A stretch of 64,000 nt of DNA from a virus: the IMG/VR virus record IMGVR_UViG_3300029425_000240; one strand, 5' to 3'. This document shows positions 2,807 through 41,380 of this stretch, piece by piece. Both the position numbers and the translations under genes were made by a program. The stretch's first letter is position 1. The number at the start of each line of letters is the position of its first letter. Below the pieces are notes generated by a model, which did not search any database, was not told the origin of the DNA, and worked only from the letters and a program-made list of their open reading frames with translations.

Positions 2807-2842
2807 AATTGCAGAGTGTTATATGATTTATTTTTTTTTATA

Positions 2843-2888
2843 CAAAAAAAAGAGAGCCGTATATTTTTGGCTCTCTTTTCCTTTTTTT
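2843..2888 (-). terminator. rho-independent terminator (bidirectional hairpin AAGAGAGCC..GGCTCTCTT)
   Basis: 9-bp stem, A-run before and T-run after; ends the giant-protein operon after 2887-3636. Confidence 0.6.
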
Positions 2889-5534: not shown

Positions 5535-8500
5535 TTACGACTGTAGCATTGCCTGAATAGTAGCGATATCTGAATCCATCTCGGCTAAACGCTGTGCTTT
5601 ATATTGTGCACCAGGCCTTTCGTAATTCGTAATAAAGAATTCGCCTGCTTCTCTTGCAGTCGTACATGCATAGAATCCTTCTACTCCGCTCGGGGACCAA
5701 TCACTCGTATCTTCCGTAAATTCGCATTCCAAACGTTTTAGCTGGCCTTCAAGCGTATTGTACTGATATCCATTTGCATTACACCATTGAACAAGTTTTG
5801 TTCTGCGTCCAAACGACCATTGAGTTAAGCCATATCCAGTACCGCCAGTTTCTTCTTCTGTATAATTGAATGAGCACTCTCTATAGATATTTACCAATAC
5901 TCCCATTGCCTGTTCAGAGGTTAATTTTCTCGACATTTTTGTTGTCAGGAATTCATATACTTCTTTAGCAACTTTTGCTTGGTCTCCATCCCACGTTCCA
6001 GGATTGAAACTGTCTGTGGTAGAATTTTCTCCTTCTGAGCATGTTCCACTCAGACTCTTATAATAATCCGGCTTTTTAATATACTGGATTGTTCGTTTTA
6101 GCGTATTCTCTTTAGCTCTATATGTATCTGCACTTGCGTCACTGCTTTCATAGTTAGGGTTTTCCTTATCAAAATCATCTACTCCATAGATGTTTTTCTC
6201 CCACCAGTCATCAAGATTTAACAGACTATCAAAATGCAGGGTAATAACTGCTCCACTGTACTTTGTATGGCCCGGACACGGTGCATACTTTGTTTCATAA
6301 ACGATGTTTCCATCCGAGTCCGTTTTATATCCGGTGTAGTATTCGATTTGGATATCTCCGTGCTCGTTTCTGACTTGTCTTGTCTTCGTTTCCATAACCG
6401 GTACTTGATAAGACATACCATCGGTATTATTTTGACCAACAATCCTTCCATCATCGTTATATACTGGATTGATTGTTCCGTCTGGGCCTGCATGGTACTG
6501 CTTAACGGCTGTTCCCGTGATAATATGTGAAGCATTAAAAAGACCAATCAAAGCCGAATATCTCAAATCATCATAGCCGCCTGCTTTGTAATTTGTCAGG
6601 TCTAAGCCTTTTTCATTCAGGTATTCTATCAGCTTCCATTTATCATCAACTTCTTTATCCGTCATACCTTTTTGATATGTGTCGTTTGTTTTTGCCTCGT
6701 CAAAGCCGGAAGCATCTTTTTTGCTAATGATTGTGCTTTTTGTTGAAGTACTAGAACTTGCCTCAAAATCAAACATAGCCATTACCATAGAAATCAGCTC
6801 TTGATTATTATTATAGAATCCATACACTTCACCTTTTGCATCTGCTTTTACATATCCTTCCGGAGTAGGTGTTGGGGTAATACCATCTGGTACTTTTTGC
6901 TCTTCCGGAAAAGTGTAGTATATGTTTTTATCTCTGTTTAAAATGTCGCGATAAACATCCTGGTCTATTTCCTGACGATACAGGATATCGGCATTTACGC
7001 TTACCGACGAAGCAGCTGAACCAGTTCCTATCGTTGATGAATCAAATGTTCCATCCAAAATACTTCCCATATTTGTTGCAGTAGTAGGAATCAATCCATT
7101 TCCATTCAATCCTGCAGGTTTAGAGCCATAACCAATAAATTCTGCAAAATCTCGGTGGCTTCCTAAGTGATGTCCATATATTCCTTCTTGCTCTGCTGGA
7201 TAACCAGTATCTTTCCAAGCCTTTTCATCCGCAATAATAATGTACATAGTATTGGATGCTGGTTGGCTGCCTATTGTGAACTCGTTATTAAATTCCACTT
7301 TAAGGACATCTCCTACTTTTCCCCAATACGAGCCAAAAGCCGCCATATACATCTTTGTTCCGTTCTGGTCGACGACAGCGTAATTTCCATTGCCTTCAAC
7401 TGTTACCTTGTTATCCAACGCCTGTTGCCGTGTTCCGGAAGCCCAATTACCATGAATATATTGGTATGTAAACTCATAATTCCACCAGGTCCCCTCAGTC
7501 ACATCATATAACCCCTGAACCTTAGAACTATCACCCTTTTGTAGCTGTGGTGCATTCATCGTTGAGCCATCTGTACCAGACGCCGAGCCTGTGCTTGACG
7601 TTCCACCAAAATGATTCGATAATTCACTTCTGAACGAATTGTGGCACAAGGTTAAGACGTCAACCATTTCTTGTAAAACTTCAGTAGTGTCTTCATCGCC
7701 TGCATCATAATAGACTTCATTTCCTGCGTTCTTCACATATGAAATAATGCAAAGGATGATTGCCAATACAATAATCAATGCTATGATTATAGGTCCTAAT
7801 GCTGCTACTAATGCTGAAATCAATGTCTGTATCAACTTTATCGCAGCCTGGATTGCTTTAATCGCGGCCTTTTGCGCTACTTTGGCGACTTTTAAAACGC
7901 CTTTTCTGACAACTTTCGTGCCTTTCATCCGTAATTTTTTTACACCTTTTTTTAGCGTTTTTTTAAGTCCGTTTTTCCTAAGATACTGGAAACCTTTTCT
8001 CGCCGCTCTTCCGCCCATATGAACTGCATGAATACCTGCTTTTGCACCTCTATATCCTGCGACCGCAGCATTTCCTATTGACTTTCCAAGCCTGATTGAG
8101 GAATTTAGCAACCTTCCAGCGTTCTCTCTCATCCATTTTATTTTTCTTGATGTGCGATACGCTTTCATAGCAGAGCCAACAATGATTGACTCCATCATGA
8201 GGAGTCCTCGCATCGTATAATCATCGCCCATATATCTATTAGCCAATGATTTTATTTTTCGGTATCCATTTTTAACCGCTTTGACAGCACCTTTGGCATA
8301 TGCCGTTAATGTTGTTTCTGTCAAATTAAGCAAAAACATCCTTCTTTGCAGTTTAAATACATTTCTTATCAACTCTTTCGTTTCTTTTGAAGTTGTTCCT
8401 GCTTTTAATAATTTTTTTAGCGCCTTTTTATCTGACGGAAGTCCCCTTGCCTGAAGCACATATGGCAGCGCGGCAGCATAAAACGCTCTTTCTACTTTGA

Positions 8501-11500
8501 AATCGCCTATGCTCTGGTCCCCGAGCACACCTTTTCGTATAATTTTTTCTCTTGTATTTTCATATACATTCAGATAATCCGTTATTGCACTTGCTGCTTC
8601 TGGAGACAATCCGCCGCCAGCCAGAAGTTCTTTTAATGTATCTGTATTCTCAGTAAGACCAAGGTGCTTAAGTTTTGCCTTTGCGTCAAACAGATATTGA
8701 CGTTCAATATCGCTCAAATAGCGTGTTTCCAAAAACACATTCATTTGATAAAACTGTTTGCTGTTTCCACTGATTGATGTCAATATTTTATCGTAATTTG
8801 CAACCAGCGTATTTAGGTCTAATTTCAAATCAATCGACTTCATATTAGCTGCTGCGCCTGCAAGCAGCTGTGCTCGAAAGACTGAATGCATTGCCATTTT
8901 TTGTTTAAAAATAAGCTGAGAGACTTTGCCTTTGTTTAATGCTTTCTGGTACAAAAGTCCACTATACGATTCTGTTACTTTGTTTGATATAAACTTATCT
9001 CCAACTTTCACAAAATCTGCGTCTGTAATAGGCTGGTTTAATGCTGGGGCTATTGTCATCGCCATTGTCATTTGTTTTGCATTGACCTTAACATCTCTTT
9101 TAATATGGAATTCCAGGCCAGCCAACGTTTTGGTCGTTCCTATGCTTCCATCCGTACTTATATCAAGGACAGTGCCTGTAGCCGTATAAATCTTGCCGCC
9201 ATATACAGCCGCGTTTTTCCAACCAACAAAAGCTCTGTCTTTGTCTACTGAATATACGTTCAATACAATTCCATCTATTCTGATAGTCCCGTCAGAACGG
9301 ACTGTGTATCTTTTTGATTTTCCATTTCTGGATATAGTTACCTGATTTCCTTCTTTTAGGACAAACATTCCAACGTCTGTGAAATTTGAGTTCTTTACGA
9401 CGCCTGGAATTCCCAGTGTATGTATAGACGGTCTCGTTATATTAAAATTCTGTGTTGCGCCAGATGAGGTTGGTCCCACTGGGCCAGATGTAACGCCTGG
9501 AACGTTCAATCCGGAACGAGTCCCCGCTGCTATCTCTCTCGCATTCGCAAGAGCCTGCTCTACATTTATCTTTATCGTTTCTACATCAGCCTGACCTGCC
9601 AAAGCATAGGAATCGGCGATTTGTTTTCCGCTTATCTGCGTTGCTGCCTGCGCACTGTTCACTGCACTGGCATATGCAGCAAGTTCGCTGGCCGACATGA
9701 TTGATGCATCTTTCAGCATCACCATACCTTCCGCTTTGTCCGTAGCAGTCTTTGCGGCATCAGAGGTGGCCTTTGCAGCTTCTCTTGCCGCTAACGCGGC
9801 TGCTACTGCAGTTACAGCTGCAGCTCCGGACACAGTACCTCGTACAGTATGTGTCTGACCTGAGCCTGACGGTACTGTGATTTCAATAACTTTCGTTTCG
9901 TCCTTTTTTTTGATAGATTGAAGGCCATTTTTACTTTCACTCGCAACCGAAGAACCTCTCTTTTGTGGATACACCACATCAGTTTTATCAGACTTTAAGA
10001 CACGGTTTTCGGTGACTTTTCTGTCAGCCTGTCCATCCTTTCTGCCAACGTAGCTATAGGTCTCTCCTGGACCGTATGGTTCTTTCCTCTTCTCATCTAC
10101 TGGAGCCTGTCCCGAAGATTCATATGAATCCCTGCTATATGTCTGCTTTCGTTCATTGATGCCGCCAGACGCCCTATCCGCATCTTGATTTTCTTGATTA
10201 GCAGCCCTATTCCTGAGAACCTCTTCAATAGCACTCGCTCCAGGCTTTTCATCCCGATGGTTTCCTACATCTTGCCGCTGGTCATGCGTCATTGTTTTTG
10301 CTTCGGAAGGCTGGTGACTGTCCCCATCTAATCCTGGATATTGATTCGAGGCAGTATGTGAAGCTGGCATCTGAGAGATTGGTCTTCGGACAATGTTATC
10401 GGCCTGGAACCTTTCACTTTTAGATAAATCATCTACTGCAGATTGACGCCTAGATGTCACCTCTGATGCACTATGTTCTCTTGTACTACTCTTTTCATAT
10501 TTTCTTTCTACTTCTCCAATTCCGTCAGAGAATGGTGGCTGCACACTTCCTGTATGCTTATCCGCAAGCCCCTGTCTTTCCAGATTTTCATAACCACGGT
10601 CTTTATGCTCGGCTTCTCTCTGTCCAGCCATTTCATATGAACTGCTTACATATCTTTTTGCATTTTCTGAAGCCGGTTCAGCAGACGGACGTTTATCTGC
10701 GCCAAAGTTTAAGACAGAGTGTGAATCTCCATTTTCTTTTCTTGCGATGCTGTCCGTACTATTCGCTGTGGCATCATAGGCTCTTCTTTCATTCCGTGCT
10801 ACGAATGTCGAAGATTGGTCTTCATTCTTAGTAGCATCATATGCCTTGGGTTTAAACGATGCGTACGTATCCTCACCGGTATCCTTGTGAGATTGAATAT
10901 CAGCAGATTCCCGTTGCCCAGCCTGCTCATATGAATCATTAATGTATTTTTTACTTTCTGATGCTTCTCTTTTATATTGTGCGGTTCCATTTGACGCGTT
11001 TCCTGAGTCTGGATTGCTGATGGCATTCCCGTCATATACTGATTCCTTTTCATGCTGAGGAATGCTGCTCGCTTTATACGGTTCGCTGCTATTCGGCTTA
11101 TCGAATCCCTGTGTGCTTCTATAACCTTCTGTATCATGCTCTCTGCGTTTTTCTACAATAGAGCCATCTGACTCCGCGTGTTTGTTTATACCGGCATCCT
11201 TCTTGTATATAAAACCTTCGTTATATTCACTGCCTTGATTTGGTCCAACCCTTTCAGTATTGCGATTTGTGTGGTTATTCTCAGCTTCATATAAACGGTT
11301 TTCCTTATCAGTACCACCATAACCTCCGTCATATTGATGGCGCTTATAAGTTTCACCAGTATCTCTTTGTCCAGACTTCTCATACGAATCAGATATATAT
11401 TTGTTTTCCGATTCAGTCCTTCTTGTATTATCTACTGCCGCTTCTGAGCCTGCCTCTGAATGATATTGAGACGTATCCTCAGCCTTCTTTCGGTCAAGTA

Positions 11501-12848
11501 CGCCAGCACCCACCGAATCCTCACGGCTTCCCCGCGATGACTGGTACCTTGATTCGTTATGAACGTTTGCACGATTTCTTTCATCCCTTACCTCGGGTCT
11601 GTCCTGTCCAAAAAAATCAGAATAAGTATCTCCTTTTACAACATGACTTACATCCTGAGCGCTTTTCGTGTTAAGTTCTTCATGACCAGATATTTGTTCT
11701 ACATTTTCCCGCTTTGGTTCAAATACTTGAGGACCAGTTCTATTTATGTCTTCTGTAATATGGGAATCTTTTTCCGCATAGTCATTTGTGATACGAGAAG
11801 AATACTCATTTGTCGCAGACCTGTTATTATCTTTCTTTTCAGGCTCCGGCCTTTCATCTCTCTTATCATTCTTATGCGACCTGTCTTGTGCATCTGATAA
11901 TGTGTCATTGTCCTTGGTCTGCATCTGCTGATACAAATCAGACGACTTTCGAGCTTCGCGCTCGTACCCAGACGCTGAACGTGGATTCAAACCCTCGTGC
12001 GACGTTAAAATTGAAGTATTTGCCTCATGAGCGGATTCTTGCCGGTCATGGATTTCCCGTTCTTCGTTAAACGTATCTGGTTCATAATACTGAGTTTTAC
12101 TCTCATTGTGTTTTGTCAATTCGTCCGAAATATTACCTTTCACCACATTTGTAACATCATCTGCACTTTTACTCTTATCGTGTATACTTGTGATATTAAC
12201 AGTTGTTTCAGGTCTCTCAGCCAGTTCCTTTTGCCTTAAAGCTTCTCTTTGCCGTTGCTGTTCTTCAGCCCTGGCCATGGCCTCTCCACGTTCGTCTTCA
12301 AGTTTGGATTCCAGAGACATACGATGCTCATTATCATATCGCTCCTGTTCCGCAGCACGAGACAATGCTTCACGGCGTTCTTCGTCAAGATGAGCCCGCA
12401 TCTCGTCACCTTTTCGGTATTTTTCACTGTCCCTCTGGTTTCCGGTATGTTCTCCACCTACGATATTCTTTAAAACTTGGTCTTTCGTTGAAAGCCCCTG
12501 TGGTTCTTCCGGTCCTGGCTCCTCTTCGCCCTCTTCTACCTCTTCATCTGCAGAGGCATCTTCAATGGTTCTTTCACCATGTCCATCTTCTTGTCTCTCA
12601 AGCTGAAGTTCTCGCAGATATTCATAAAATTCCGGATACTTATCTGGAATTTCTAAAATTTCCGCATTATCAAAAAGTTCATCCAGGTCGACTCTGCTTA
12701 AAGCCTCATCTGCCGCTTTAAAGCTAATCCTTTCCTCGTCTGATATATCTGGGGAATCCTGTTTTCCGTCTATATCTATCATATCCAGACATAAACCTCT
12801 CTGAAACAGATTGGCCAATAAGCTTATATATTCTTCTTTTGGCAACAT
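5535..12848 (-). CDS. giant (~2440 aa) multidomain membrane protein: disordered acidic/Arg-rich N-terminal ~1000 aa, Ala-rich helical region, Lys-rich amphipathic segment plus single TM, C-terminal peptidoglycan-hydrolase region ending in a phage-tail-lysozyme/SLT-like domain (GYGLTQWSFGRR...)
   Basis: Single uninterrupted frame; start re-assigned to ATG 12848 after GGGAGGTGAAAAGG RBS; K-rich segment then LISALVAALGPIIIALIIVLAIILCIISYV TM; architecture resembles VirB1/PrgK/TcpG-type conjugation hydrolases (inference). Confidence 0.75.
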   Translation of the reverse strand: MLPKEEYISLLANLFQRGLCLDMIDIDGKQDSPDISDEERISFKAADEALSRVDLDELFDNAEILEIPDKYPEFYEYLRELQLERQEDGHGERTIEDASADEEVEEGEEEPGPEEPQGLSTKDQVLKNIVGGEHTGNQRDSEKYRKGDEMRAHLDEERREALSRAAEQERYDNEHRMSLESKLEDERGEAMARAEEQQRQREALRQKELAERPETTVNITSIHDKSKSADDVTNVVKGNISDELTKHNESKTQYYEPDTFNEEREIHDRQESAHEANTSILTSHEGLNPRSASGYEREARKSSDLYQQMQTKDNDTLSDAQDRSHKNDKRDERPEPEKKDNNRSATNEYSSRITNDYAEKDSHITEDINRTGPQVFEPKRENVEQISGHEELNTKSAQDVSHVVKGDTYSDFFGQDRPEVRDERNRANVHNESRYQSSRGSREDSVGAGVLDRKKAEDTSQYHSEAGSEAAVDNTRRTESENKYISDSYEKSGQRDTGETYKRHQYDGGYGGTDKENRLYEAENNHTNRNTERVGPNQGSEYNEGFIYKKDAGINKHAESDGSIVEKRREHDTEGYRSTQGFDKPNSSEPYKASSIPQHEKESVYDGNAISNPDSGNASNGTAQYKREASESKKYINDSYEQAGQRESADIQSHKDTGEDTYASFKPKAYDATKNEDQSSTFVARNERRAYDATANSTDSIARKENGDSHSVLNFGADKRPSAEPASENAKRYVSSSYEMAGQREAEHKDRGYENLERQGLADKHTGSVQPPFSDGIGEVERKYEKSSTREHSASEVTSRRQSAVDDLSKSERFQADNIVRRPISQMPASHTASNQYPGLDGDSHQPSEAKTMTHDQRQDVGNHRDEKPGASAIEEVLRNRAANQENQDADRASGGINERKQTYSRDSYESSGQAPVDEKRKEPYGPGETYSYVGRKDGQADRKVTENRVLKSDKTDVVYPQKRGSSVASESKNGLQSIKKKDETKVIEITVPSGSGQTHTVRGTVSGAAAVTAVAAALAAREAAKATSDAAKTATDKAEGMVMLKDASIMSASELAAYASAVNSAQAATQISGKQIADSYALAGQADVETIKINVEQALANAREIAAGTRSGLNVPGVTSGPVGPTSSGATQNFNITRPSIHTLGIPGVVKNSNFTDVGMFVLKEGNQVTISRNGKSKRYTVRSDGTIRIDGIVLNVYSVDKDRAFVGWKNAAVYGGKIYTATGTVLDISTDGSIGTTKTLAGLEFHIKRDVKVNAKQMTMAMTIAPALNQPITDADFVKVGDKFISNKVTESYSGLLYQKALNKGKVSQLIFKQKMAMHSVFRAQLLAGAAANMKSIDLKLDLNTLVANYDKILTSISGNSKQFYQMNVFLETRYLSDIERQYLFDAKAKLKHLGLTENTDTLKELLAGGGLSPEAASAITDYLNVYENTREKIIRKGVLGDQSIGDFKVERAFYAAALPYVLQARGLPSDKKALKKLLKAGTTSKETKELIRNVFKLQRRMFLLNLTETTLTAYAKGAVKAVKNGYRKIKSLANRYMGDDYTMRGLLMMESIIVGSAMKAYRTSRKIKWMRENAGRLLNSSIRLGKSIGNAAVAGYRGAKAGIHAVHMGGRAARKGFQYLRKNGLKKTLKKGVKKLRMKGTKVVRKGVLKVAKVAQKAAIKAIQAAIKLIQTLISALVAALGPIIIALIIVLAIILCIISYVKNAGNEVYYDAGDEDTTEVLQEMVDVLTLCHNSFRSELSNHFGGTSSTGSASGTDGSTMNAPQLQKGDSSKVQGLYDVTEGTWWNYEFTYQYIHGNWASGTRQQALDNKVTVEGNGNYAVVDQNGTKMYMAAFGSYWGKVGDVLKVEFNNEFTIGSQPASNTMYIIIADEKAWKDTGYPAEQEGIYGHHLGSHRDFAEFIGYGSKPAGLNGNGLIPTTATNMGSILDGTFDSSTIGTGSAASSVSVNADILYRQEIDQDVYRDILNRDKNIYYTFPEEQKVPDGITPTPTPEGYVKADAKGEVYGFYNNNQELISMVMAMFDFEASSSTSTKSTIISKKDASGFDEAKTNDTYQKGMTDKEVDDKWKLIEYLNEKGLDLTNYKAGGYDDLRYSALIGLFNASHIITGTAVKQYHAGPDGTINPVYNDDGRIVGQNNTDGMSYQVPVMETKTRQVRNEHGDIQIEYYTGYKTDSDGNIVYETKYAPCPGHTKYSGAVITLHFDSLLNLDDWWEKNIYGVDDFDKENPNYESSDASADTYRAKENTLKRTIQYIKKPDYYKSLSGTCSEGENSTTDSFNPGTWDGDQAKVAKEVYEFLTTKMSRKLTSEQAMGVLVNIYRECSFNYTEEETGGTGYGLTQWSFGRRTKLVQWCNANGYQYNTLEGQLKRLECEFTEDTSDWSPSGVEGFYACTTAREAGEFFITNYERPGAQYKAQRLAEMDSDIATIQAMLQS

Positions 12849-12862
12849 CCTTTTCACCTCCC

Positions 12863-24901: not shown

Positions 24902-24932
24902 TATGTAATGAAAAGGCAAGGAGGTGAGACGA

Positions 24933-26534
24933 ATGGCAAAGGCGAGAAGACGCAAAGATACGCAGTTTGAAACTTCTATGACGAAAAGTGTATTTCTGTA
25001 TGGCAGCCCGAATAAAGACAAATCTAAAATCATCCGGGATATGCAGAATGAATTTACAAAGATGGTAAATGGATATATCAGACTCCTTGCGGGTAATGAT
25101 AAATTTACACTTCAAATCGTAAAAAATGATAAGAAGAGCAGTGACATCCGCAAGTTTGAAAAATCCATCCGTCCGAAAAATGCAAATTCTGCATTCTCTC
25201 AGAATGCCTTTGACATGGCGGTGACCCATCTTTCTAACCGTATGGATAGCATCCGGCAGGATATGTATACAGAAGAACAGTCAGTCTTTACATCATCAAA
25301 AGTCCTGTTTGCAATGTCCATTGATTCCAAGACGAAGTCTGAGATGCTGAGCACTATGAAACAGATTGCGTCTAAAACAAAGAAAGACAAGGCTTTCTAT
25401 GAAGACTGTATCAGTATCCTGAATGAAATGTCAGACGACGAGTTTACATTTAAACAGGTGGAATTCATGGATATGTATATCAGTTTATCAATGGAATACC
25501 GTGTCCCAGAATTAAGACGGGCGCATATGCCTCTTGACAGCAGGCTGATGAAGATTGAAGTATCAACAGATACCGTCATGCCATATGTGATTAAGATAAG
25601 CGACGCTTTACATAAAAACGCAGAAAGAATCGTAATACCGATTAACACAAGCAGACATCCTGCCAATAAAATCAAATCACATAAAATGGCCGGTACGGTC
25701 ATGGCGTCAATTGATGAAAACGGAATCCTGCAGGTCGGATGGAGTTATGAGTCAAAAATGAAACAGCCAAAGACTTCAAATGTGGTAGGCGTTGATGTCG
25801 GTATCTCTGACACACTGCATACATCTGAAGATAAAGCAATCGGCAGCATGAAGCCGGTGATTGCTTTTTACCACGATACAGTGGAAAAGTCATTCGCTTC
25901 GCTGTCTGACATGAGAAATAAAAAACGCAGTATCAGCCATTACCTGCGAAGACATAAGGCCCTTCCGGAAGATGTGAGACGTTCTCTCATCAAAAAGATG
26001 GACCGGCTTGACCAGATGATTCAAAAGGCTGATGCCCCATACCGCAAGAAGCGCTGCTATTATGAAACACTTGACCATGAGATTAAATCAAGCATAGACA
26101 GATATATAGAATCAATCTCACATGATACCCTGACAGTCCTAGAAAAACTGGATATCAGGGAATTTAACAAAAGCCGTAAGTCTAACGGTATGATGTCAAC
26201 ATTTGCGAGAGGGAAGCTGCAGAAGAAGCTCATGGAGACTTTAAACTGGTATGGCTATGATTTCAAGGAAATTATACCGGATTACACCAGCCAGACATGT
26301 CCGGTATGCAGCCATCTTGAAAAAGACAACCGCAATGGCAAGTCTTTTAAATGCAAGTGCTGCGGATATGAAGCGGATGCGGATTATGTTGGAAGCCTGA
26401 ACATCAAGGCAAGAATCGACGACCAGGAAATACAGGAGATATGCGAAAAGTATAAGTATAAACATAATGAGTTACAGAAGAATCTTAAGATGATATACAA
26501 ATCACGTAACGACCAATACAAAGCAGCGGCCTGA
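24933..26534 (+). CDS. tnpB: TnpB-like RNA-guided endonuclease (IS605 OrfB / Cas12-ancestor family), RuvC triad intact
   Basis: RuvC-I VGVDVGISD, RuvC-II LTVLEKLD, Zn finger CPVCSH...CKCCG, RuvC-III ADADYVGSLNI; ATG 24933 after AAGGAGGTGAGACGA (track starts at GTG 24924); no adjacent tnpA. Confidence 0.8.
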   Translation: MAKARRRKDTQFETSMTKSVFLYGSPNKDKSKIIRDMQNEFTKMVNGYIRLLAGNDKFTLQIVKNDKKSSDIRKFEKSIRPKNANSAFSQNAFDMAVTHLSNRMDSIRQDMYTEEQSVFTSSKVLFAMSIDSKTKSEMLSTMKQIASKTKKDKAFYEDCISILNEMSDDEFTFKQVEFMDMYISLSMEYRVPELRRAHMPLDSRLMKIEVSTDTVMPYVIKISDALHKNAERIVIPINTSRHPANKIKSHKMAGTVMASIDENGILQVGWSYESKMKQPKTSNVVGVDVGISDTLHTSEDKAIGSMKPVIAFYHDTVEKSFASLSDMRNKKRSISHYLRRHKALPEDVRRSLIKKMDRLDQMIQKADAPYRKKRCYYETLDHEIKSSIDRYIESISHDTLTVLEKLDIREFNKSRKSNGMMSTFARGKLQKKLMETLNWYGYDFKEIIPDYTSQTCPVCSHLEKDNRNGKSFKCKCCGYEADADYVGSLNIKARIDDQEIQEICEKYKYKHNELQKNLKMIYKSRNDQYKAAA

Positions 26535-26835
26535 AACGAGTATGCAGAAAAGAAATAGTCTCTGACTATTACACCTTCTGTCGAAAGCTTCAGGCCCATA
26601 GGAGCCTCGTCGTGTCCTGCTGTAGCATGTCTGCAGCCGGGCCTCTGTCCAGGGATAGTTCTGGTGCATATGCTTGCATATGTGTCGGTTGTATTTCTCG
26701 CAGGTAAAAGTAATTGTTTTACCTGGTGTCTTCGGATACTCGGTAATTCATATTTATTCTGGTAACGACTCCGGCAAAGCCGGGGAGTTATCAATTTCCG
26801 AGAGGTTCACAAAGCGTGCAAGATTAAAAAAAGCA
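26535..26835 (+). ncRNA. candidate TnpB guide (omega/right-end) RNA scaffold
   Basis: ~300 nt ORF-poor structured region directly 3' of tnpB, with hairpins caggtaaaag..cttttacctg (26700-26726) and ccggcaaagccgg (26771-26783), then a strong terminator; by analogy to IS605-family omega RNAs. Confidence 0.35.
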
Positions 26836-31465: not shown

Positions 31466-32530
31466 TCAGTCAGTTTCGTCCTTATGCATATCATGGACCA
31501 TTCCCGCATTAGTCATCGCCGACTGCATACTTACTTTCGTCCTTGGTGTTTTCATGCAGGCATCCTCAGACACCGTCTTTTTGACGCATTTTTCTTTTCG
31601 GATTTTTTCCGCTTCGGCATTTGAGAATTCCTTTTTAGGTTCCTTTGTTGCTCCCCAAAAAGCCTCGCCGGCAATCGCTGCAGGCCCGACACCTTCTGCC
31701 AGATTATTTGGGATAAAGATTTTTGTAGCCCGGCCATCGGCCACATCCTTCATCGCTTCAATAGATTTTAAACGTAAAATATTTTCATTTACGCCTGACT
31801 CCGCAAGCCTTCTAAGTCCTTCTGCTTCTGCTTCATATACAAGCCTGATAGCCTCCGCCTGGCCTTTCGCAAGAGCAATTTTTGCGTCTCTCTCAGCTTC
31901 TGCGTCAAGCAGTTTCGCCTGCTTATCACCTTCTGCCCTGGATACTACAGATTCTTTATGTGCCTGTGCTTCCAATACGGTCTGGCGTCTTTCTCTTTCA
32001 GCCCTCATCTGCTTTGTCATGACCTCTTCAATCTCTTTCGGTGGCTTGATATTTTTGACCTCCACGCGTGATACCTTAATACCCCATTCATCAGTTGCTT
32101 CATCAAGCACATCCTGCATCTGGCGGTTGATATCTGCTCTCGAAGACAGTGTCTGGTCTAATTCCATGGCGCCAATAATACTTCTGAGAGTCGTGGCTGT
32201 CAAATTCTGTAAACCAGTGATAGGTTTCTCAATTCCATATGTATACAATTTTGGGTCGAAAACACTTGCATACACGACAGAATCGATACTAATTGTGACG
32301 TTATCTTTTGTGATAACATCCTGTGGCGGAAAATCGTACACCTGTTCCTTGATGGAGATTTTCTTTACAATCTTATCAATGACTGGAACTTTCACATGCA
32401 GGCCAGCCTCCCACGTTGTGCTGTATTTTCCAAGGCGCTCAATAATGTAGCATGCCTGCTGAGGGACGATACGTATCTGGTTCGCCAGGAATACAATGAT
32501 TATTACTAGAATAACTATAACAAAAAACAT
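31466..32530 (-). CDS. SPFH/band-7 (stomatin/prohibitin/HflK-C-like) membrane protein
   Basis: N-terminal TM, SPFH core, then Ala/Glu-rich coiled coil (AEAERDAKIALAKGQAEAIRL); AGGAGG RBS. Confidence 0.75.
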   Translation of the reverse strand: MFFVIVILVIIIVFLANQIRIVPQQACYIIERLGKYSTTWEAGLHVKVPVIDKIVKKISIKEQVYDFPPQDVITKDNVTISIDSVVYASVFDPKLYTYGIEKPITGLQNLTATTLRSIIGAMELDQTLSSRADINRQMQDVLDEATDEWGIKVSRVEVKNIKPPKEIEEVMTKQMRAERERRQTVLEAQAHKESVVSRAEGDKQAKLLDAEAERDAKIALAKGQAEAIRLVYEAEAEGLRRLAESGVNENILRLKSIEAMKDVADGRATKIFIPNNLAEGVGPAAIAGEAFWGATKEPKKEFSNAEAEKIRKEKCVKKTVSEDACMKTPRTKVSMQSAMTNAGMVHDMHKDETD

Positions 32531-32743
32531 ATTTTATCCTCCTGTGTGTTTTGTTGCCGATAACCGAAACAGGAATTTAAAGTGTTGATACAATGGCCAG
32601 TTGTCGCAAGCACGTTGTTTATGTCCCGGGTCTCTATGTACAATATGATAAATATTTGGAAGAACAGTGTATTTGTATATAAAAAACGTATAAAAAAAAA
32701 ACATGGAGGTCATCCTAATCGGCAAGCCGATTACTCTGACCTC

Positions 32744-32897
32744 GAGACAAGACATATACACTGCAAAATCGCGGAAGGTTCTATCCGCTCCGATACTGGA
32801 TATCCTATAAGTTTTCTTAAAATTCATATATATCGTGATATCCAGTATCTTCGCGTTCCAGATATATGAAGATTTTGCAGTGTACATGTCTTGTCTC
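32744..32897. repeat. 154-bp nested inverted repeat (27-bp outer arms, 13-bp perfect inner arms, AT-rich centre): candidate origin / oriT / operator
   Basis: Outer arms GAGACAAGACATATACACTGCAAAATC (32744-32770) and its complement at 32871-32897 (26/27); inner GATACTGGATATC (32792-32804) / GATATCCAGTATC (32837-32849); 32-bp AT-rich core. Confidence 0.7.
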
Positions 32898-34042
32898 AGC
32901 TTTTTTCTTTCGTTAGTGCGGGCGTGATTCATATATTCTAAAAGTTTTGACATGTTGAGTGTTATTACGATGCGTGATGTCGCTTTACCGGATAAATCAC
33001 ACCCTTCGTTAATGGGCTGCATTCCCAGTTGCCATCTCAACGTTACACCTTGCAAAAAGTAAATTTATATTTCGTAACCTTACGTTTTGAAAGGCGGCCT
33101 TTGGCCGCCATGCAGCCCAGAGGAGGAGGGAGCTGAGCAGATTGACATAGCTTCTCCTTGCGAAAAAGCGCAGACTCTCCCTATAATGGTATGCGTCTGC
33201 GCGGAAGAAGGATAACGCTATGCCATTCTGCTCAGATTTTATGTAGCCCGTCGGAATCGGTCGCTTCACATCATGACGGTCTTAGATAGCAGTCGCACTC
33301 ATCGAAAAACTTATCGAAGAGTTTATCGGAAAGCGCAACCCTGCAGTTCAAATCAGCCGTGCTGATTTTGGCGTAGTCTAAATTATACATTTCTTCTGTA
33401 CAATCTATGGCACATCCCACACGCCATGATGTTTCCATCATCCTACAGGTCCCGACAGCCCGCAAGCTGCCTGTGCATTTGTGCTTCACTTCCTCCTGTT
33501 GCGGTTTTATTACATCAACTGTATATACAATTTGTCTTTATTTCCGCGGATTCCGTTATCCACAAACTCCCCCGCGTCCTACTCTTAACCAGGTTTCCAC
33601 CCGTGCTTTCGCATCTTACGCATACAACTACGTATTAGGCAAAGGGCTTGCAACGCACTACACCCCCTTAGGTCATCGGATAGTCTAAGACCAAACTATT
33701 TTTTCCGCTCCCTGCTCGACTTTTGCCGCTCGGCAACACTTAACGTTGTTTTAGTAACCAGATTGGTCCTTGCTCTGCATTACTGCAGCATATGTCTCGT
33801 TCTCATCACGTTTTTTTTATTATTTTTGCTGATTTTGTCTTTCTTTTTTTATCTTTATGCAAAAAAAACAATAATTAACGTCCTCTTGGTAGAGGTGACA
33901 CCTCAATATTCAATTTGACCGCGTGATATTTCCACAAATTTCCTGCCTCCTTTTATTTCTTTTTTTTCGCTTCTTTGTACAATATCAGTAAGGTCCTTCA
34001 GGACTTTTTGTAAAGTTCCTGGCTGTCATCTGTATCATCAGA

Positions 34043-34058
34043 ATCAATATGCAGAATA
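34043..34058 (-). promoter_or_regulatory. conserved box (TTCTGCATATTGAT) inside the 2-kb noncoding region
   Basis: No annotated CDS downstream; AAAGGAGG-type RBS and a ~20-codon TTG/GTG mini-ORF follow ~75 nt later; may drive a leader or noncoding transcript. Confidence 0.35.
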
Positions 34059-34117
34059 ATTTGTGAACCGGACGGATTTTTTTATTTTTTTTAAAAATCA
34101 TCGACGGGAGGAAAGCC

Positions 34118-34560
34118 CTCGTCCAACTTTGATACCTCGCCGGCTTTGCCGGAGTCGGTACCAGAGCACGCATGATACCTTGTCGCATCGGCTCGTTACC
34201 AATTTGCGCAGCAAATGTCAAGCGAAACCGTAAGGCTGAGTGCAGAGAATAAATATGATACTTCGTGCTTCGCACTCAGTACCAGAATGAATATGATAAC
34301 TCAGGCTTAGCGCCTTCGTTACCAGAATAAATATGATGCCTCACCGGCCTTGCCGGATTCGGCACCAGAGCACGCATGATACCTCGCCTGCTTTACAGGA
34401 CTCGGCACCAGATTAAAAATGATAACTCAGGCTTAACGCCTTCGTTACCAGAATAAATATGATAACTCGCCGTTACCGGCTCGTTACCAAGCCTCGCAGA
34501 GGCTGACAAGCGAGCATAGCTCGCGGTATCATGAGCCTGTATGACAGGCTACTTATTTTT
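34118..34560. repeat. tandem hairpin array R3 (~10 units, period 39-45 bp)
   Basis: Unit = ~27-nt conserved block (C)GGTACCAGA-ATAAATATGATAACTC alternating with short 4-5-bp-stem hairpins (GCCGGCTTTGCCGG, GTGCTTCGCAC, AGGCTTAGCGCCT, CCGGCCTTGCCGG, CCTGCTTTACAGG, GCCGTTACCGGC); one unit carries a module A insertion. Confidence 0.75.
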
Positions 34561-35565
34561 TTTCGTTCTTTTCCATCCTTCCGACATGTCCATGTCATCG
34601 AACTCCTCATACATGTCGTCATCTTCATTTCCATCATCACCCATGACTGGTATGTAATTATCCTCCAATGCTTTTTCCTGTGCGATAATATAAGGGTACA
34701 ATTGTGCAAACTGTTTATTATTTTTTAGCTTTGTGGTAATGCGTGATATCTTACGTTTTACTTTTGGAATATTACTGCCTGGAATCTGTTCTGCAATCTC
34801 ACGATAACTGGAGTGCTTTTTACTTGAATTCTCAGGATTTAACAACAGTTCTAAGAGATTAAGCTCTTCGTCCGTCAATACATCCTTAAGGATTGTTTTT
34901 AAGTTTTCCTCTGATTCTGATTCAATAACAGATTCTTCCGGTCCTTTAATTGATGCTGTATAGTCTGCGCCCGCATCAATTAATGCTTCGTATGAGACGC
35001 TGTCTTTTTTTGACATTAAATCAAGAGTATTCTTTACGGTCGCTTCTGACAGCCCTGTCAGGCTCATGATTGTCTCAATGTCCTCTGCATTTAATCCATA
35101 TTGTTTGCAGTAATTCTGCGCGCCATTGATTTTTTTCATGGCATTCGCATAATATACAGAGGTTTTTCTGAAATTTTTGCTTGCATAATCGCTTACCACA
35201 TGGCGAATCCATGGCGCTATGAACGTAGTGATAGCACCTTTGTCAGGGTCGTAATTTTTTAATTCCGAAAAAATCTTAATCCACACATCTTGAACAATGT
35301 CTTCCTGGTGATATCTGTTCTGCATAAGTGTGCGATAGTTATCCCAAAGTGTTTTATAAACGTAATTTTTGATAAAATAGTATATCTGCGTAAATGCGTC
35401 CTGTACCGTTGCGTTGTCGCCTGCTTCAAGCGCCATATGGTATACTTTGACCAGTTTATTAATCTCTTGTGGGTCGTATTTTCCATTTGAACTGTAGACT
35501 ACCTTCTTTTCTTCTAATAGTTGAGTATTATCGGCAGCATTCATCTTTGTCACTGACGTGTCCAT
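34549..35565 (-). CDS. sigma-70 family RNA polymerase sigma factor (element-encoded), acidic C-terminal extension
   Basis: Region-2-like DIVQDVWIKIFSELKNYDPDKGAITTFIAPWIRHVVSDY, region-4 HTH SYREIAEQIPGSNIPKVKRKISRITTKL; ATG 35565 after AAGGAGGAG. Confidence 0.65.
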   Translation of the reverse strand: MDTSVTKMNAADNTQLLEEKKVVYSSNGKYDPQEINKLVKVYHMALEAGDNATVQDAFTQIYYFIKNYVYKTLWDNYRTLMQNRYHQEDIVQDVWIKIFSELKNYDPDKGAITTFIAPWIRHVVSDYASKNFRKTSVYYANAMKKINGAQNYCKQYGLNAEDIETIMSLTGLSEATVKNTLDLMSKKDSVSYEALIDAGADYTASIKGPEESVIESESEENLKTILKDVLTDEELNLLELLLNPENSSKKHSSYREIAEQIPGSNIPKVKRKISRITTKLKNNKQFAQLYPYIIAQEKALEDNYIPVMGDDGNEDDDMYEEFDDMDMSEGWKRTKKNK

Positions 35566-35824
35566 CAAAAAACTCCTCCTTGTTGATTTCTGGCTTTAAC
35601 ATCTTTTTTATAGTTTCACGATAGCTCCTCTCCGGCACCGATTTGATGTCACTCTTATCTATCTGACATAAACTTTCTCCCATCTTTTTTAATTCTTTAG
35701 TAGTTTCTTCTAATGGTTTATATTTGGAACTCCATTCTTTCCAGATAGTTTCAAAGTCATAACTTTCGTTCCCAGCAATATATTCTGCTAGATTTTTCAT
35801 TGCTGAATACATTGTTTTTCGCAT
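35528..35824 (-). CDS. hypothetical protein (98 aa), overlaps and is co-transcribed with the sigma factor gene
   Basis: ATG 35824 after AAAAGGAGG (track ORF starts at 36103 inside the previous gene); C-terminal DKDECCR; 38-nt overlap with the sigma gene. Confidence 0.45.
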   Translation of the reverse strand: MRKTMYSAMKNLAEYIAGNESYDFETIWKEWSSKYKPLEETTKELKKMGESLCQIDKSDIKSVPERSYRETIKKMLKPEINKEEFFDGHVSDKDECCR

Positions 35825-38282: not shown

Positions 38283-39179
38283 TTAGCCAATTTTGAAATC
38301 ATCTAAGTCGTCATCTTCAAAAGATTCACTTTCGATTTCCTGATTTCTTTCTTTTTTGATAATGTGCGAAGTTAAAACCGGAGCGCTTGACCCGCGGACG
38401 ACTTTTTGTCGGCCGGGGATTTCCTGTTCTCCATTAATAATCCGCGCTTCCCTCCTGTGGCCAGTTCTTAGACTCGGTGCCTCCTGTTTCTTATCAGTAT
38501 TAACGTTATCTAAAAGTTCCTGTGTGCTGTTATACTCTTCGTCTTCTTCCTCATCTTCTTCCTCGTCTTCTTCATACTCATCCTCTTCATTCGTCGGCAA
38601 TTTGTCAGCAAAACTTGATTCGTTATCGAACTCAGGGCGTGAATTTAAGCCTTCATGAAAAGCTGAAACCGCAGGACCTGGCTCACAGACGATATCATCG
38701 GCCGAGTCCCCTTCGCTCTTTGCTGATTTATTGTGACTCTCTCTTGCTTTTTCTCGTTCCGGTTTCTCTTTAACATCTTCATGAGCGTTATTTCTATTTC
38801 CAATGTTTAACGCCTTTTTTATCGCGTTATTATGCATCTTCATGATACTTGTATCACTGTCAACATTGATACCCTCCAATGCAGTCTCATAATCACCCTG
38901 GTCTTCTTTAAGGAAGTTAAGGGCATTGATAATCAGATTATACATATACTGATTTCCAGTATAAATATCAGCCAGCTGTTCAAGCGTGTCCTCAATGTTT
39001 CCAGTGTTTTCAAAACATTCCTGGAAATTTTCTGCATAATCGTCTGCAAGCAGTTTCTTATTTCCTGATGCTTCACTCTCTTCCTGTGAGCCCATTTTTG
39101 CCAATTTAACAAACAGAGCGAAACCAATCACGACGCAAGAAACACCGGCTCCGATTAAAATAATCACTGTATTGTCCAT
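38283..39179 (-). CDS. TM-anchored acidic low-complexity protein (298 aa); C-terminal region carries repeat module B in frame
   Basis: N-terminal TM (IILIGAGVSCVVIGFALFV), EEDEYEEDEEEDEEEDEEY run; AAAGGAGGAG RBS; repeat 38364-38418 inside the CDS. Confidence 0.5.
   Translation of the reverse strand: MDNTVIILIGAGVSCVVIGFALFVKLAKMGSQEESEASGNKKLLADDYAENFQECFENTGNIEDTLEQLADIYTGNQYMYNLIINALNFLKEDQGDYETALEGINVDSDTSIMKMHNNAIKKALNIGNRNNAHEDVKEKPEREKARESHNKSAKSEGDSADDIVCEPGPAVSAFHEGLNSRPEFDNESSFADKLPTNEEDEYEEDEEEDEEEDEEYNSTQELLDNVNTDKKQEAPSLRTGHRREARIINGEQEIPGRQKVVRGSSAPVLTSHIIKKERNQEIESESFEDDDLDDFKIG
38362..38420. repeat. repeat locus R4 (module B copy inside CDS 38283-39179)
   Basis: GTGCGAAGTTAAAACCGGAGCGCTTGACCCGCGGACGACTTTTTGTCGGCCGGGG; read in a different frame from the copy in 13673-14497. 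Confidence 0.65.
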
Positions 39180-41280: not shown

Positions 41281-41380
41281 TCGGCTGAGCGCTTTCTGCT
41301 TGATACCTCGCCGTATCGGCTCGGCACCAGATTAAAATTGATAACTCTCCGTTCGACCCGGTACCAGATTAAAATTAATT
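41281..41380. repeat. repeat locus R5 (two module C units)
   Basis: GATACCTCGCCGTATCGGCTCGGCACCAGATTAAAATTGATAACTC...GGTACCAGATTAAAATTAA, ending on the stop codon of 41375-42235. Confidence 0.6.

Follow-up and report, generated by a model that had tools for sequence, protein, structure and literature searches.

Large, intricately folded bacterial RNAs for which no job is known are rare, and the named classes include OLE, GOLLD, ROOL, raiA and HEARO, the last of which was later recognised as the guide RNA of IscB. GOLLD, ROOL, OLE and raiA have a number of traits in common with the RNA-like element described below: a size between several hundred and ~900 nt, numerous covarying helices with highly conserved unpaired blocks and GNRA loops in between, and an independent gene on Firmicutes mobile DNA with no protein partner or function evident from sequence. 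Cryo-EM has shown that GOLLD, ROOL and OLE form homo-oligomeric RNA-only complexes (PMC12286853). Circularly permuted (CP) group II RNAs, which are about 900 nt long and occur in Firmicutes, were noticed precisely because they match Rfam group II fragments (PMC8637638). Folded elements also occur in single-stranded DNA, as in the Frpo elements located immediately upstream of ssb in F-like plasmids (PMC11541004).

A second group of systems relevant here consists of dispersed DNA palindromes. The REP/BIME sequences of enterobacteria and the BOX elements of Streptococcus pneumoniae are imperfect palindromes of ~40 nt in intergenic and 3' regions, which occur as single, inverted-pair and clustered copies, vary between strains in the number of modules, and show both stem covariation and evidence of mobility. 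All of these properties recur in the repeat described below.

The locus analysed here belongs to a conjugative element of gut bacteria and lies within a window of 64,000 nucleotides (the whole stretch of DNA that was analysed). Between a sigma-like gene and an SPFH/Band_7 gene, this element has a gap of 2018 bp (32531-34548). We consider it likely that the gap is a composite of two unrelated minus-strand parts, namely a mobile palindrome array and an independent structured ncRNA gene (Table 1).

Table 1. Positions of the gap features, the flanking genes and the dispersed repeat copies in the window.
Feature	Position	Strand	Basis or remark
Sigma-like gene	34549-35568	minus	
Tandem array, ~9 palindromic units of 38-44 nt	34125..34533	minus	TRF, repeat finder, regex map, MFE fold
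Two longer 'head' modules of the array	34530-34490, 34245-34201	minus	
Unit cores, first four	34488-34461, 34449-34421, 34409-34378, 34366-34335	minus	
Unit cores, last four	34323-34295, 34283-34257, 34200-34174, 34162-34131	minus	
Terminator-like hairpin GACGAGGGCUUUCCUCCCGUC, then U/A-rich run	34093..34123	minus	read from sequence
Promoter-like box GCATATTG, T-rich stretch upstream	34045..34052	minus	orphan: no ORF after it
Candidate large structured ncRNA, ~950 nt	34035..33085 (approx.)	minus	homologs, covariation, fold z-score
P1 of three-way junction	33901-33897 with 33796-33792	minus	
P2 of three-way junction	33895-33882	minus	
GC-rich hairpin GGCGGCC-AAA-GGCCGCC, then UUUC	33093..33109	minus	read from sequence
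154-nt inverted repeat: 27-nt outer arms (96% complementary), 13-nt perfect inner arms	32744..32897	none	repeat finder
Strong intrinsic-terminator-like hairpin, arms 32743-32726/32723-32706, then 10 U	32690..32743	minus	inverted repeat I6 and sequence
Variant promoter box TCATATTG, ~110 nt upstream of SPFH start codon	32641..32648	minus	read from sequence
SPFH/Band_7 gene	31466-32530	minus	
Two units, intergenic 3' region, upstream of terminator	41302..41365	minus	
Solitary unit copy	26750..26792	plus	within conserved 3' flank of TnpB-like gene
Single units	45929-45898 and 13538-13512		

A non-coding gap that distant relatives lack

The initial annotation had described about 2 kb without credible protein-coding capacity, and this description was borne out, as the gap is non-coding. 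None of the open reading frames listed for it has a Pfam match at E<=0.1, and these frames are broken or unconserved in relatives. In the L030-type variant of this element, a loss of 2 nt disrupts a 173-aa frame (33055->32534), and neither a 72-aa frame (33489->33271) nor a ~20-codon mini-ORF (33934->33872) is preserved in the diverged homolog L070, where there are indels, a frameshift and no RBS. A tRNA/tmRNA scan found no genes of either type.

In near-identical elements the gap measures 2018, 1892, 1899 and 1750 bp, and variants that cover most of it diverge by only ~3-4%. The entire gap is missing from more distant relatives, in which the sigma gene is followed by a small ORF and Band_7 within 40-460 bp, or directly by SSB. 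Downstream of the gap, genes for SSB, a DnaN-like clamp and topoisomerase III give the region the look of a conjugative leading region. No iterons, Rep gene or GC-skew switch were found at the gap site, which the initial annotation had also considered as a candidate origin region; no Rep or relaxase gene was identified adjoining it, and cumulative GC skew continues through it. Neither the window region nor three homologous RNAs had a DNA match in phage and plasmid collections, the sigma protein had no match in plasmids, and searches of viral and genome collections with this protein recovered no relatives.

Conservation and covariation of a large RNA-like element

Roughly half of the gap consists of an RNA-like element on the gene strand that is both conserved and highly structured, in agreement with the large structured ncRNA that had been suspected from the sequence alone. 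Its predicted 5' end was placed by the promoter box and its predicted 3' end by the hairpin at 33109-33093. Homologs obtained with blastn, nhmmer and a covariance model represent five diverged lineages (window/L030, L070/L075/L176, L153, L058 and L008). At ~70% identity, these homologs consist of near-identical blocks split by inserts of variable length, and their helices are kept by double substitutions, which together indicate purifying selection on the fold. A three-way junction is formed by P1, P2 and P3 with a conserved junction strand, GAUGAGAACGA (33807-33797). The conserved blocks past this junction are AACGUUAAGUG, P7, GCCUAAG, P8 and GGUUAAGAGUAGGACGCGGGGGAGU (~33590-33565), while the 3' domain comprises P10, an internal hairpin (33202-33195/33175-33168) and P11 (33235-33217 with 33151-33133). 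P11 is the long-range pair enclosing a hairpin that the initial annotation had pointed out, and its conservation extends to other lineages. The middle third of the RNA (~33560-33300) is common only within lineage pairs. Scanning viral contigs with the conserved blocks yielded just one further copy, of the L070 type. A closing helix between a 5' AAGGAGG and a 3' CCUCC run was also considered; it is suggestive in two lineages only and was not adopted as established.

Comparative alignment, which had been recommended as a check, revealed compensatory base changes across the five lineages. In alignment A1, composed of sequences trimmed of the variable inserts P3, P4 and P9, 92.3% of the cells at 31 pairs can pair, compared with 26-60% when partners are slid. 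Double-sided changes are seen at 14 of these 31 pairs (1-4 in the slid controls), and the covariation score is 0.542 versus at most 0.139. On four of five measures none of 500 shuffles reached the observed value, and on the fifth, further pair types, 5 of 500 did so; these statistics are drawn from few independent sequences (five lineages, two of them incomplete) and from a structure partly derived from the same sequences. An independent RNAalifold run recovered P1, P2, P3 and P7, with a compensatory change at 17 of 50 predicted pairs, and P8, P10 and P11 were added by a manual pair table. P10 and P11 depend on this table because the MAFFT alignment of the 3' domain is too inconsistent for pair counting; MAFFT also misaligns P8 (helix 6) in two lineages, and the assignment of P5 is ambiguous in view of the long-range alternative that RNAalifold favours. 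The minimum free energy is -283.7 kcal/mol (z -7.39) for the minus strand versus -223.5 (z -2.77) for the plus strand, and GNRA loops (GAAA, GUAA, GGAA) are present on the minus strand only. As is generally required of structured ncRNAs, the helices are maintained by compensatory substitutions in independent homologs.

These results bear on whether the gap is simply decaying junk, made up of remnants of degraded genes and dead mobile elements that lie between modules and have no function of their own. Such a reading would accommodate the absence of the whole module from related elements, the mobile repeats, unique inverted repeat and broken ORFs within the gap, and the small divergence between variants. 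It is at odds with a fold that is under purifying selection in homologs of ~70% identity and with a promoter box that is kept in all lineages, and we judge it highly improbable for the gap as a whole. The poorly conserved junk that the initial annotation had named as the contrary outcome is largely refuted for 33940-33085, while 33085-32750 may still be material of this kind.

The initial annotation had also likened the region to places that carry RNAs of the GOLLD/ROOL class, and had proposed a scan for these, HEARO, group II intron domains and raiA-type motifs; there is no Rfam 15 match to any of them. A cmscan of the whole window at the gathering score gave 0 matches, OLE included; at E<=10, the interval 32300-34800 gave only four chance-level matches, to unrelated families, and at E<=1 nothing overlapped the RNA in L058, L070 and L153. 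Group II introns, including circularly permuted ones, were rejected, with no Intron_gpII or group-II-D1D4 matches and no D5-like hairpin in the conserved blocks. A known large class (such as ORF-less or circularly permuted group II, group I, GOLLD, ROOL) might be represented here by a form too divergent or degenerate for the models to detect. In favour of this are the ~0.9 kb size, the mobile-element setting and the GNRA loops; in addition, the CCUAAG block resembles half of the 11-nt tetraloop receptor, and the junction strand GUGAUGAG..CGAGAC is reminiscent of a ribozyme core. Against such membership, no Rfam 15 family was recovered at E=10 (2.5 kb, permissive filters) or at E=1 (three other lineages), and the element has neither a domain V-like 34-nt hairpin with an AGC triad nor a GUGYG 5' end, which leaves little room for this explanation. 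Unlike GOLLD, ROOL, OLE and raiA, the window RNA is without sequence or structure match in Rfam 15 and has a distinctive three-way junction with the invariant junction strand RAUGMGAACGA. It is found in human-gut conjugative-element contigs and not in prophages next to tRNAs. We found no description of such an RNA in the literature.

Predicted transcription signals and alternative roles for the fold

The isolated promoter box that had been reported at 34043-34058 is real and lies at 34045-34052. It is a copy of GCATATTR, the element's general gene-proximal motif, which occurs 20 times in the window versus 6.5 expected, nearly always in the orientation of a gene whose start codon lies 35-55 nt further downstream. 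The same box precedes the three-way junction by 168-345 nt in all six RNA loci (window, L070, L075, L153, L058 and L008). The hairpin at 34093..34123, which is conserved in the L030 and L031 variants, would close a transcript of the sigma gene and the array; a consensus terminator scan called neither this hairpin nor the one at 32690..32743. The orphan copy of the box would drive an independent gene for a structured ncRNA of ~950 nt, with a core formed by the three-way junction and its invariant 11-nt strand, beyond which come several covarying helices, hairpins with GNRA caps and long unpaired blocks that are conserved. Judged from its sequence, the hairpin at 33093..33109 is the probable 3' end of the RNA or a weak terminator, and transcription would stop either there or 350 nt later, at the strong terminator. 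In the L030 type, the stem of the former hairpin is retained and its loop is flipped from AAA to TTT. The variant box at 32641..32648 suggests that the SPFH-SSB genes have a promoter of their own.

These signals also bear on whether the region is a very long cis-acting leader, of the attenuator or riboswitch type, that controls the SPFH-SSB operon, directly upstream of which it lies on the same strand. The initial annotation had seen an attenuator-like layout with a mini-ORF and mutually exclusive hairpins. An SD-like AAGGAGG followed by UUG/GUG and the 20-codon ORF at 33934-33872 is indeed present, as is a second SD plus AUG at 33161-33148. However, the frame and RBS of the mini-ORF are lost in L070, L153 and L058, and only one of the two hairpins covaries: CCUCUACCAAGAGG (33895-33882) is retained in other lineages as CCCC/GGGG, UUUC/GAAA and GUC/GAC and corresponds to P2 of the three-way junction, whereas its competitor, GAGGUGUCACCUC, is not retained. 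The second SD plus AUG was rejected as a true start, since this motif is the 3' strand of the conserved helix P11, and the alternative hairpin is not maintained. Moreover, each lineage has different genes downstream, the RNA is separated from SPFH by two terminator-like hairpins and a further promoter box, and relatives express Band_7-SSB without the RNA module. Overall, control of this operon in cis appears very unlikely, and the independent RNA gene proposed here would not be a cis-regulator of SPFH-SSB.

The genomic surroundings of the RNA vary between lineages, the neighbours being SSB in the window, a type I methylase/specificity pair in L070 and an IscB element in L058. A kinase-like gene precedes the RNA in L070 and L153; this association is not fixed, because homologs of the gene in L165-L175 are followed directly by LRR genes, with no RNA. 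Because the RNA module moves between gene contexts, we infer that it acts in trans, as a stably folded RNA that would serve the conjugative element itself, most likely at establishment in a new host.

The same surroundings are compatible with a conserved fold that acts as single-stranded DNA, either as a single-strand origin (sso/ssi) or as a Frpo-like single-strand promoter upstream of the SSB gene; such an element would allow priming or transcription of the transferred strand once this has reached the recipient. Known sso/Frpo elements are 150-330 nt long. With Frpo/ssi elements the locus has in common the position upstream of ssb, uniformly oriented establishment-type genes and large stable hairpins such as the 154-nt inverted repeat (PMC11541004). 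This repeat is located just upstream of SPFH-SSB and folds strongly on either strand under RNA or DNA parameters (z-scores of -11 to -16); it is absent from the other RNA lineages. The leading-region look of the downstream genes is complemented by methylase genes beside the L070 copy. Compensatory changes are equally expected of DNA hairpins, and covariation and G.T pairs fit a folded single DNA strand of the same sense. Nevertheless, the structure strongly favours the sense strand, whereas a transferred-strand promoter must fold on the template strand, and the presence of several GNRA tetraloops along with long unpaired invariant blocks is typical of RNA with tertiary structure. The conserved element, at ~850 nt, is far above the size of known sso/Frpo elements and has no similarity to known Frpo, and no recognisable -35/-10 pair was found inside a stem. 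The box found in all six loci is an ordinary double-strand promoter box, and terminator-like hairpins follow the window copy. We therefore regard a single-stranded DNA element as unlikely, although less so than a leader. In a separate comparison, the 154-nt inverted repeat was dismissed as a multicopy MITE, as neither the rest of the window nor any compared locus contains a second copy.

Returning to the trans-acting RNA, we tentatively propose, with slightly less than even confidence, that the RNA at ~34035-33085 founds an undescribed class of tertiary-structured RNAs of 0.85-1.3 kb, carried by Firmicutes conjugative elements of the human gut and acting in trans during establishment of the incoming element. 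If so, RNAs of this class would use the promoter type of the element that carries them and would occur in islands resembling leading regions, with genes for SSB, methylases and guided nucleases as neighbours. They might, for example, serve there as scaffolds, as ribozymes or as decoys against host defence, and would be to conjugative elements what GOLLD and ROOL are to phages. A new self-contained class of ~0.9 kb, borne by conjugative elements of Firmicutes that are abundant in the human gut, would add conjugation to the settings of the few large RNA classes named at the outset, and its location beside SSB and methylase genes would make it a concrete candidate for an RNA that functions early in establishment or against host defence.

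A mobile palindromic repeat of variable copy number

The tandem hairpin array recorded at the other end of the gap withstood analysis, with a TRF period of 40-43 and an MFE fold that is a row of hairpins. On the sense strand, the unit consensus is UCUGGUAAC-GA-[variable stem, mostly triloop]-GA-GUUAUCA plus an AU-rich linker. Repeats of the array are mutually 64-88% alike with variable stems, according to the repeat finder. Among 317 instances there are 93 unique unit cores. The basal stem of the unit covaries (TAAC/GTTA, TACC/GGTA, TGCC/GGCA, TACT/AGTA), as does the upper stem, in which triloops dominate and which has 31 distinct 5-nt starts among 61 unique middles. Each 38-44-nt unit is predicted to fold into a hairpin in which a conserved tandem GA/GA internal loop separates the covarying basal stem from the variable upper stem.

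Units are present at six sites in the window, and both their mobility and their variation in number are evident from comparisons between loci. The unit at 26750..26792 is a clean 43-nt insertion: the window flank reads ...ggtaattca[tatttattctggtaac...gagttatca]atttccgag..., and the homologous flank in L040, which lacks the unit, reads ...ggtaattca/attgccgag.... Since the L040 flank places the insertion inside the flank, we rejected the possibility that this unit is the terminal stem of a TnpB guide RNA. Within the array, L027 has a 126-bp deletion that corresponds to 3 units. Units are inserted as discrete blocks, arrays gain or lose them, and those in mRNA 3' regions probably form stable REP/BOX-like hairpins ahead of the terminator.

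Having the short imperfect palindrome, dispersed intergenic copies, variable cluster size and stem covariation of REP/BIME- or BOX-type repeats, the array is one that we read as belonging to a dispersed REP/BOX-like mobile DNA repeat family and not as an origin-specific feature. It differs from REP/BIME and BOX in the hallmark of its unit, GGUAAC-GA...GA-GUUAUC with a tandem G.A motif. Unlike BIMEs, in which orientation alternates, the window units form long direct tandem arrays; unlike REP, they have no RAYT/TnpA gene nearby, and their host range is that of gut Lachnospiraceae-type mobile elements. Other array types were rejected. Against a ToxI-like type III toxin-antitoxin array stand the limited likeness of the repeats, their variable stems and the single units dispersed elsewhere, and the array is not followed by a toxin-like ORF, just as no gap ORF has a Pfam match. 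In a CRISPR array the variable part would be a spacer, whereas here it is a self-complementary stem-loop of 13-20 nt and the constant part is the hairpin base plus linker. An attC array and iterons were likewise considered and rejected.

With the end hairpins of IS200/IS605 elements and PATEs, the unit shares sub-terminal DNA hairpins, a strand-specific asymmetry (G.T pairs on one strand) and insertion without obvious long target duplication beside a short target (~TCA). Repeated insertion next to an existing copy is possible in both cases, and TnpB-like and TnpA-like genes exist in the gene pool. Unlike these systems, the window unit is a single hairpin and not a pair of left and right ends, it lies inside the conserved TnpB 3' flank and does not end it, and no TnpA is encoded in the window. 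No enzyme mobilising the repeat and no TnpA homolog were identified in the window; Y1 TnpA homologs, sought with an approximate query sequence, were detected in 5 hairpin-bearing loci (L048 and L149 among them), not adjacent to the units. A hairpin-pattern scan of the genome collection returned only chance-level matches in unrelated phyla. Relative to the genes, the repeat keeps a uniform orientation in the window but, by a crude survey, a mixed one among metagenome loci, which makes an RNA-level role for it doubtful.

The palindromic unit provides a clean, easily searched marker for a family of uncultured gut mobile elements, and possibly a new substrate of single-strand DNA transposition. 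Copies of it occur in more than 119 stretches of human-gut metagenome, and six matching stretches lie on a single 137-kb IMG/VR contig.

A non-coding gap in a large conjugative element

The window belongs to a large conjugative element, present in many human-gut assemblies, whose G+C content is 40% and whose genes lie nearly all on the minus strand. Its genes encode a VirD4/TraG-type coupling protein, topoisomerase III, a RecD2-like helicase, SSB, a DnaN-like clamp, FtsH, sortase, BspA-type LRR surface proteins and a sigma-70-family protein, whose 90% cluster includes a member annotated from Blautia massiliensis. Between the sigma-like gene and an SPFH/Band_7 gene lies a gap of 2018 bp (32531-34548), and searches of phage and plasmid collections gave no match for it or for the sigma gene. 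The initial annotation saw no credible coding capacity here, and we find that the gap is indeed non-coding. None of its mechanical ORFs has a Pfam match. The 20 loci retrieved via the same or 90%-cluster SPFH protein represent two variants, with about 3-4% divergence across the alignable positions of the gap. The 173-aa ORF is disrupted in one of them (the L030 type) by a deletion of 2 nt, and indels in a diverged homolog, L070, destroy the 72-aa ORF and a 20-codon mini-ORF. Since more distant relatives of the element carry a small ORF and Band_7 within 40-460 bp downstream of the sigma gene, or SSB directly, the gap is an accessory insertion.

Features of the gap and associated repeats and motifs (window coordinates)
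Feature	Position	Strand	Remarks
Tandem array of palindromic units	34533-34125	minus (gene strand)	unit period 37-44 nt
Single or paired units	45929, 41365/41328, 13538	minus	same unit as array
Solitary 43-nt unit	26750-26792	plus	in conserved 3' flank of TnpB-like gene
Second repeat module	34530-34461, 34245-34170, 13580-13510	minus	precedes some units
Terminator-like hairpin	34123-34103	minus	U/A-rich tail; after array
Promoter-like box GCATATTG	34052-34045	minus	T-rich stretch precedes; no ORF follows
GCATATTR sites (examples)	2793, 13376, 20209, 24892, 28093, 31380, 34045, 35863, 41162, 46097, 55387, 62339		T-rich stretch, then GCATATT(A/G)
GC hairpin	33109-33093		downstream of RNA
Strong terminator	32743-32690		350 nt beyond GC hairpin
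154-nt inverted repeat	32744-32897		27-nt outer, 13-nt inner arms; just upstream of SPFH-SSB promoter region
Variant promoter box TCATATTG	32648-32641		about 110 nt before SPFH start

A conserved, covarying and strand-specific fold

BLAST of the gap against metagenome loci fetched through the hairpin repeat showed L070 to be collinear with 33940-33130 at roughly 70-75% identity. Profile and covariance-model searches added two copies of the L070 type (L075, L176), two that are much more diverged (L153, L058), and one in L008, a relative of the window element whose contig ends 70 nt into the RNA. The homologs consist of near-identical blocks separated by inserts of widely differing length (the P3 interior measures 13, 64, 85 and 151 nt in four lineages), and their helices change in sequence between lineages while pairing is maintained. 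The 5' core is a three-way junction of P1 (GUGUC/GACAU, AAGUC/GACUU, GUGUC/GACAC), P2 (CCUC/GAGG, CCCC/GGGG, UUUC/GAAA, GUC/GAC, CCAAU/AUUGG, with a mostly UACCAA loop) and P3 (ACGUU/AACGU, GCGCU/AGCGU, GCAUA/UGUGU, GCAUG/CAUGC, ACAUA/UAUGU), with an invariant junction strand, RAUGMGAACGA. The order 3' of the junction is AACGUUAAGUG, P7, GCCUAAG, P8 (a GUUGUA-type loop on a stem with four different sequences), then a variable hairpin and finally the block GGUUAA..GUAG...CGGGGG.G. Two helices of the 3' domain, P10 and the long P11, are maintained in each of the four full-length lineages; P11, in which GGCAUAGY pairs with a sequence resembling a Shine-Dalgarno plus AUG, is the long-range complementary pair noticed initially. 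GNRA loops cap several hairpins, exclusively on the minus strand. One pair of substitutions between the two window-type variants changes GGU-GGAA-ACC to GGU-GAAA-GCC and so preserves the tetraloop.

Pair statistics were computed for a 31-pair model of the trimmed 5' domain in a 5-sequence alignment, and thus for few independent lineages. Paired cells reached 92.3%, versus 26-60% when partners were slid by 1-3 columns; double-sided changes occurred in 14 pairs, versus 1-4 in the slid controls; and the covariation score was 0.542, versus at most 0.139. None of 500 shuffles reached the observed values on four of five measures, and 5 of 500 did so for further pair types. Run blind on the same alignment, RNAalifold recovered P1, P2, P3 and P7, with a compensatory change in 17 of 50 predicted pairs, and offered a long-range alternative to our P5. 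For the 856-nt window sequence, the computed folding energy is -283.7 kcal/mol on the minus strand (z = -7.4), compared with -223.5 on the plus strand (z = -2.8). These observations demonstrate that the gap carries a conserved, covarying and strand-specific fold, in line with the large structured RNA proposed in the initial annotation.

With regard to minor features, an 11-nt segment (TCTGCTCAGCT) of the 3' strand of P11 (~33141) is duplicated in tandem in the L030 type, whose GC hairpin has the same stem as in the window and a loop flipped from AAA to TTT. The minus-strand junction strand at 33807-33792, GUGAUGAG-AA-CGAGAC, is similar to the core of the hammerhead (CUGAUGAG...CGAAAC) but has no stem II; given that Rfam gives no hammerhead match, the likeness is probably coincidence.

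Large ornate non-coding RNAs on mobile elements are a kind already known. Rfam 15 gives no match at gathering score anywhere in the window, nothing better than chance for the gap at E<=10, and no match for three other RNA lineages at E<=1. This excludes detectable membership in GOLLD, ROOL, OLE, HEARO, raiA, group I/II introns, RNase P, tmRNA, 6S or T-box, so the GOLLD/ROOL, HEARO, group II intron and raiA-type affiliations raised initially are not supported. Group II RNAs of the circularly permuted class have a similar size, but were recognised via D5/D6-like domains and hits to group II fragments in Rfam (PMC8637638); both are absent here, and this assignment is unlikely. An attenuator, also suggested by the initial layout of a mini-ORF and mutually exclusive hairpins, is rejected, as the mini-ORF is lost in L070 and only one of the competing hairpins, P2, is maintained. 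We found no description of such a large RNA in the literature. The family appears to be new, with uncultured human-gut conjugative elements as its only carriers so far, and we consider it likely that this is a genuine structured RNA gene of a family absent from Rfam.

Promoter motif, genomic context and possible role of the RNA

The promoter-like motif GCATATTR occurs 20 times in the window (6.5 expected), and nearly all copies share the orientation of the genes and precede a start codon by 35-55 nt. It is the element's standard promoter-proximal motif and may be recognised by the sigma-70-family protein that the element itself encodes (34549-35568). The isolated box noted initially is one such site, and six of six RNA loci have a GCATATT(G/A) box, preceded by a T-rich leader, at a distance of 168-345 nt upstream of P2. 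Flanking genes differ in every lineage: the RNA lies between the sigma gene and SPFH-SSB in the window, between a kinase-like gene and hsdM-hsdS in L070, between a kinase-like gene and a 170-aa ORF followed by an LRR protein in L153, and downstream of an IscB-like gene in L058. At other loci, homologs of the kinase-like gene are not followed by the RNA. The RNA is thus a self-contained module rather than the leader of one operon; it has a promoter-type motif of its own and is mobile as a module.

The main rival explanation, a folded single-strand DNA element, is improbable: the strand asymmetry of the fold, the GNRA loops, the size of the element and the ordinary promoter box all argue against it. 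The fold would instead represent a stable, trans-acting RNA, about 0.95 kb long (up to 1.3 kb if read-through occurs), which the element would make for its own benefit. The neighbours of this RNA (SSB, clamp, type I methylase, guided nucleases) suggest that it acts while the element establishes itself and counters host defence during transfer, and a role in establishment specifically is a tentative and rather doubtful proposal.

The remainder, 33085-32531, is unique to the window lineage. Its 154-nt inverted repeat, which has no further copy in the window or the fetched loci, could either extend the RNA at its 3' end or act at the DNA level, for instance as a Frpo-like single-strand promoter before SPFH-SSB (cf. 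PMC11541004). In L058, the IscB-like gene (1549-3024, minus; 491 aa, HNH motif) has a sub-threshold HEARO match just upstream (3099-3377, minus; 35 bits, E 7e-4), both immediately upstream of the large-RNA copy.

A mobile palindromic repeat next to the RNA

The tandem hairpin array reported initially folds, at minimum free energy, as a row of unit hairpins. On the gene strand, each unit reads UCUGGUAAC-GA-[variable stem-loop]-GA-GUUAUCA, followed by an AU-rich linker. The basal stem covaries (TAAC/GTTA, TACC/GGTA, TGCC/GGCA, TGCC/GGTA with G.T, TACT/AGTA, TAAT/ATTA) and the tandem GA/GA is nearly invariant. The upper stem shows 31 distinct 5-nt starts among 61 unique middles, 47% of which form at least 4 contiguous pairs (5% when shuffled), and the loops are mostly triloops (GAA, AAA, TTT), including the GCGAAGC mini-hairpin. 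Unit number varies between near-identical elements (gaps of 2018, 1892, 1899 and 1750 bp), and the L027 array lacks exactly three units, or 126 bp.

The copy near the TnpB-like gene is decisive for the nature of the unit. This gene (24924-26534, plus), on the strand opposite to almost all others, encodes 536 aa with a Cas12f1-like TNB domain. Its 3' flank of roughly 250 nt (26535-26810) is a candidate guide (omega) RNA, because its conservation extends to the corresponding flank of a homolog in L040 (65% identical); Rfam gives no match for it. The L040 flank reads uninterrupted (...ggtaattca|attgccgag...), and the window's 43-nt unit sits precisely at that junction, which identifies the unit as a discrete insertion. 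The repeat is therefore mobile as well as variable in copy number.

Scanning for the unit pattern returned more than 119 human-gut metagenome stretches, with repeated occurrences on one 137-kb IMG/VR contig, and only chance-level matches in 185,579 representative genomes. Many unit-bearing loci carry genes common to the window element or arrays of LRR_5 surface-protein genes, and units occur alone, as direct tandems or as inverted pairs about 100 nt apart, embedded among other palindromic modules. We conclude that the unit belongs to a REP/BOX-like mosaic repeat family moving at the DNA level. Its triloops, strand-specific G.T pairs and short TCA-like junction recall IS200/IS605-type single-strand transposition, which may mobilise it. 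We only infer this mechanism, since the window encodes no Y1 transposase and the Y1 TnpA homologs in five unit-bearing loci (L149 2225-2650, L048 424-822, L117 3-236, L072 641-892, L092 13061-13472), possibly the mobilising enzymes, are not adjacent to units.

Some of the inverted pairs, with units about 100 nt apart, form REPIN-like doublets (L117 4658-4788, L043 1877-2007, L054 9285-9415, L041 3249-3380). The genes upstream of these doublets share a conserved C-terminal stretch of 25-40 residues with the window proteins 38283-39179 and 5535-12857. The hairpin of the second repeat module swaps its stem fully between copies (GCCU/AGGC versus UUUG/CAAA) around a constant CUGCG loop, and the repeat family is therefore modular.
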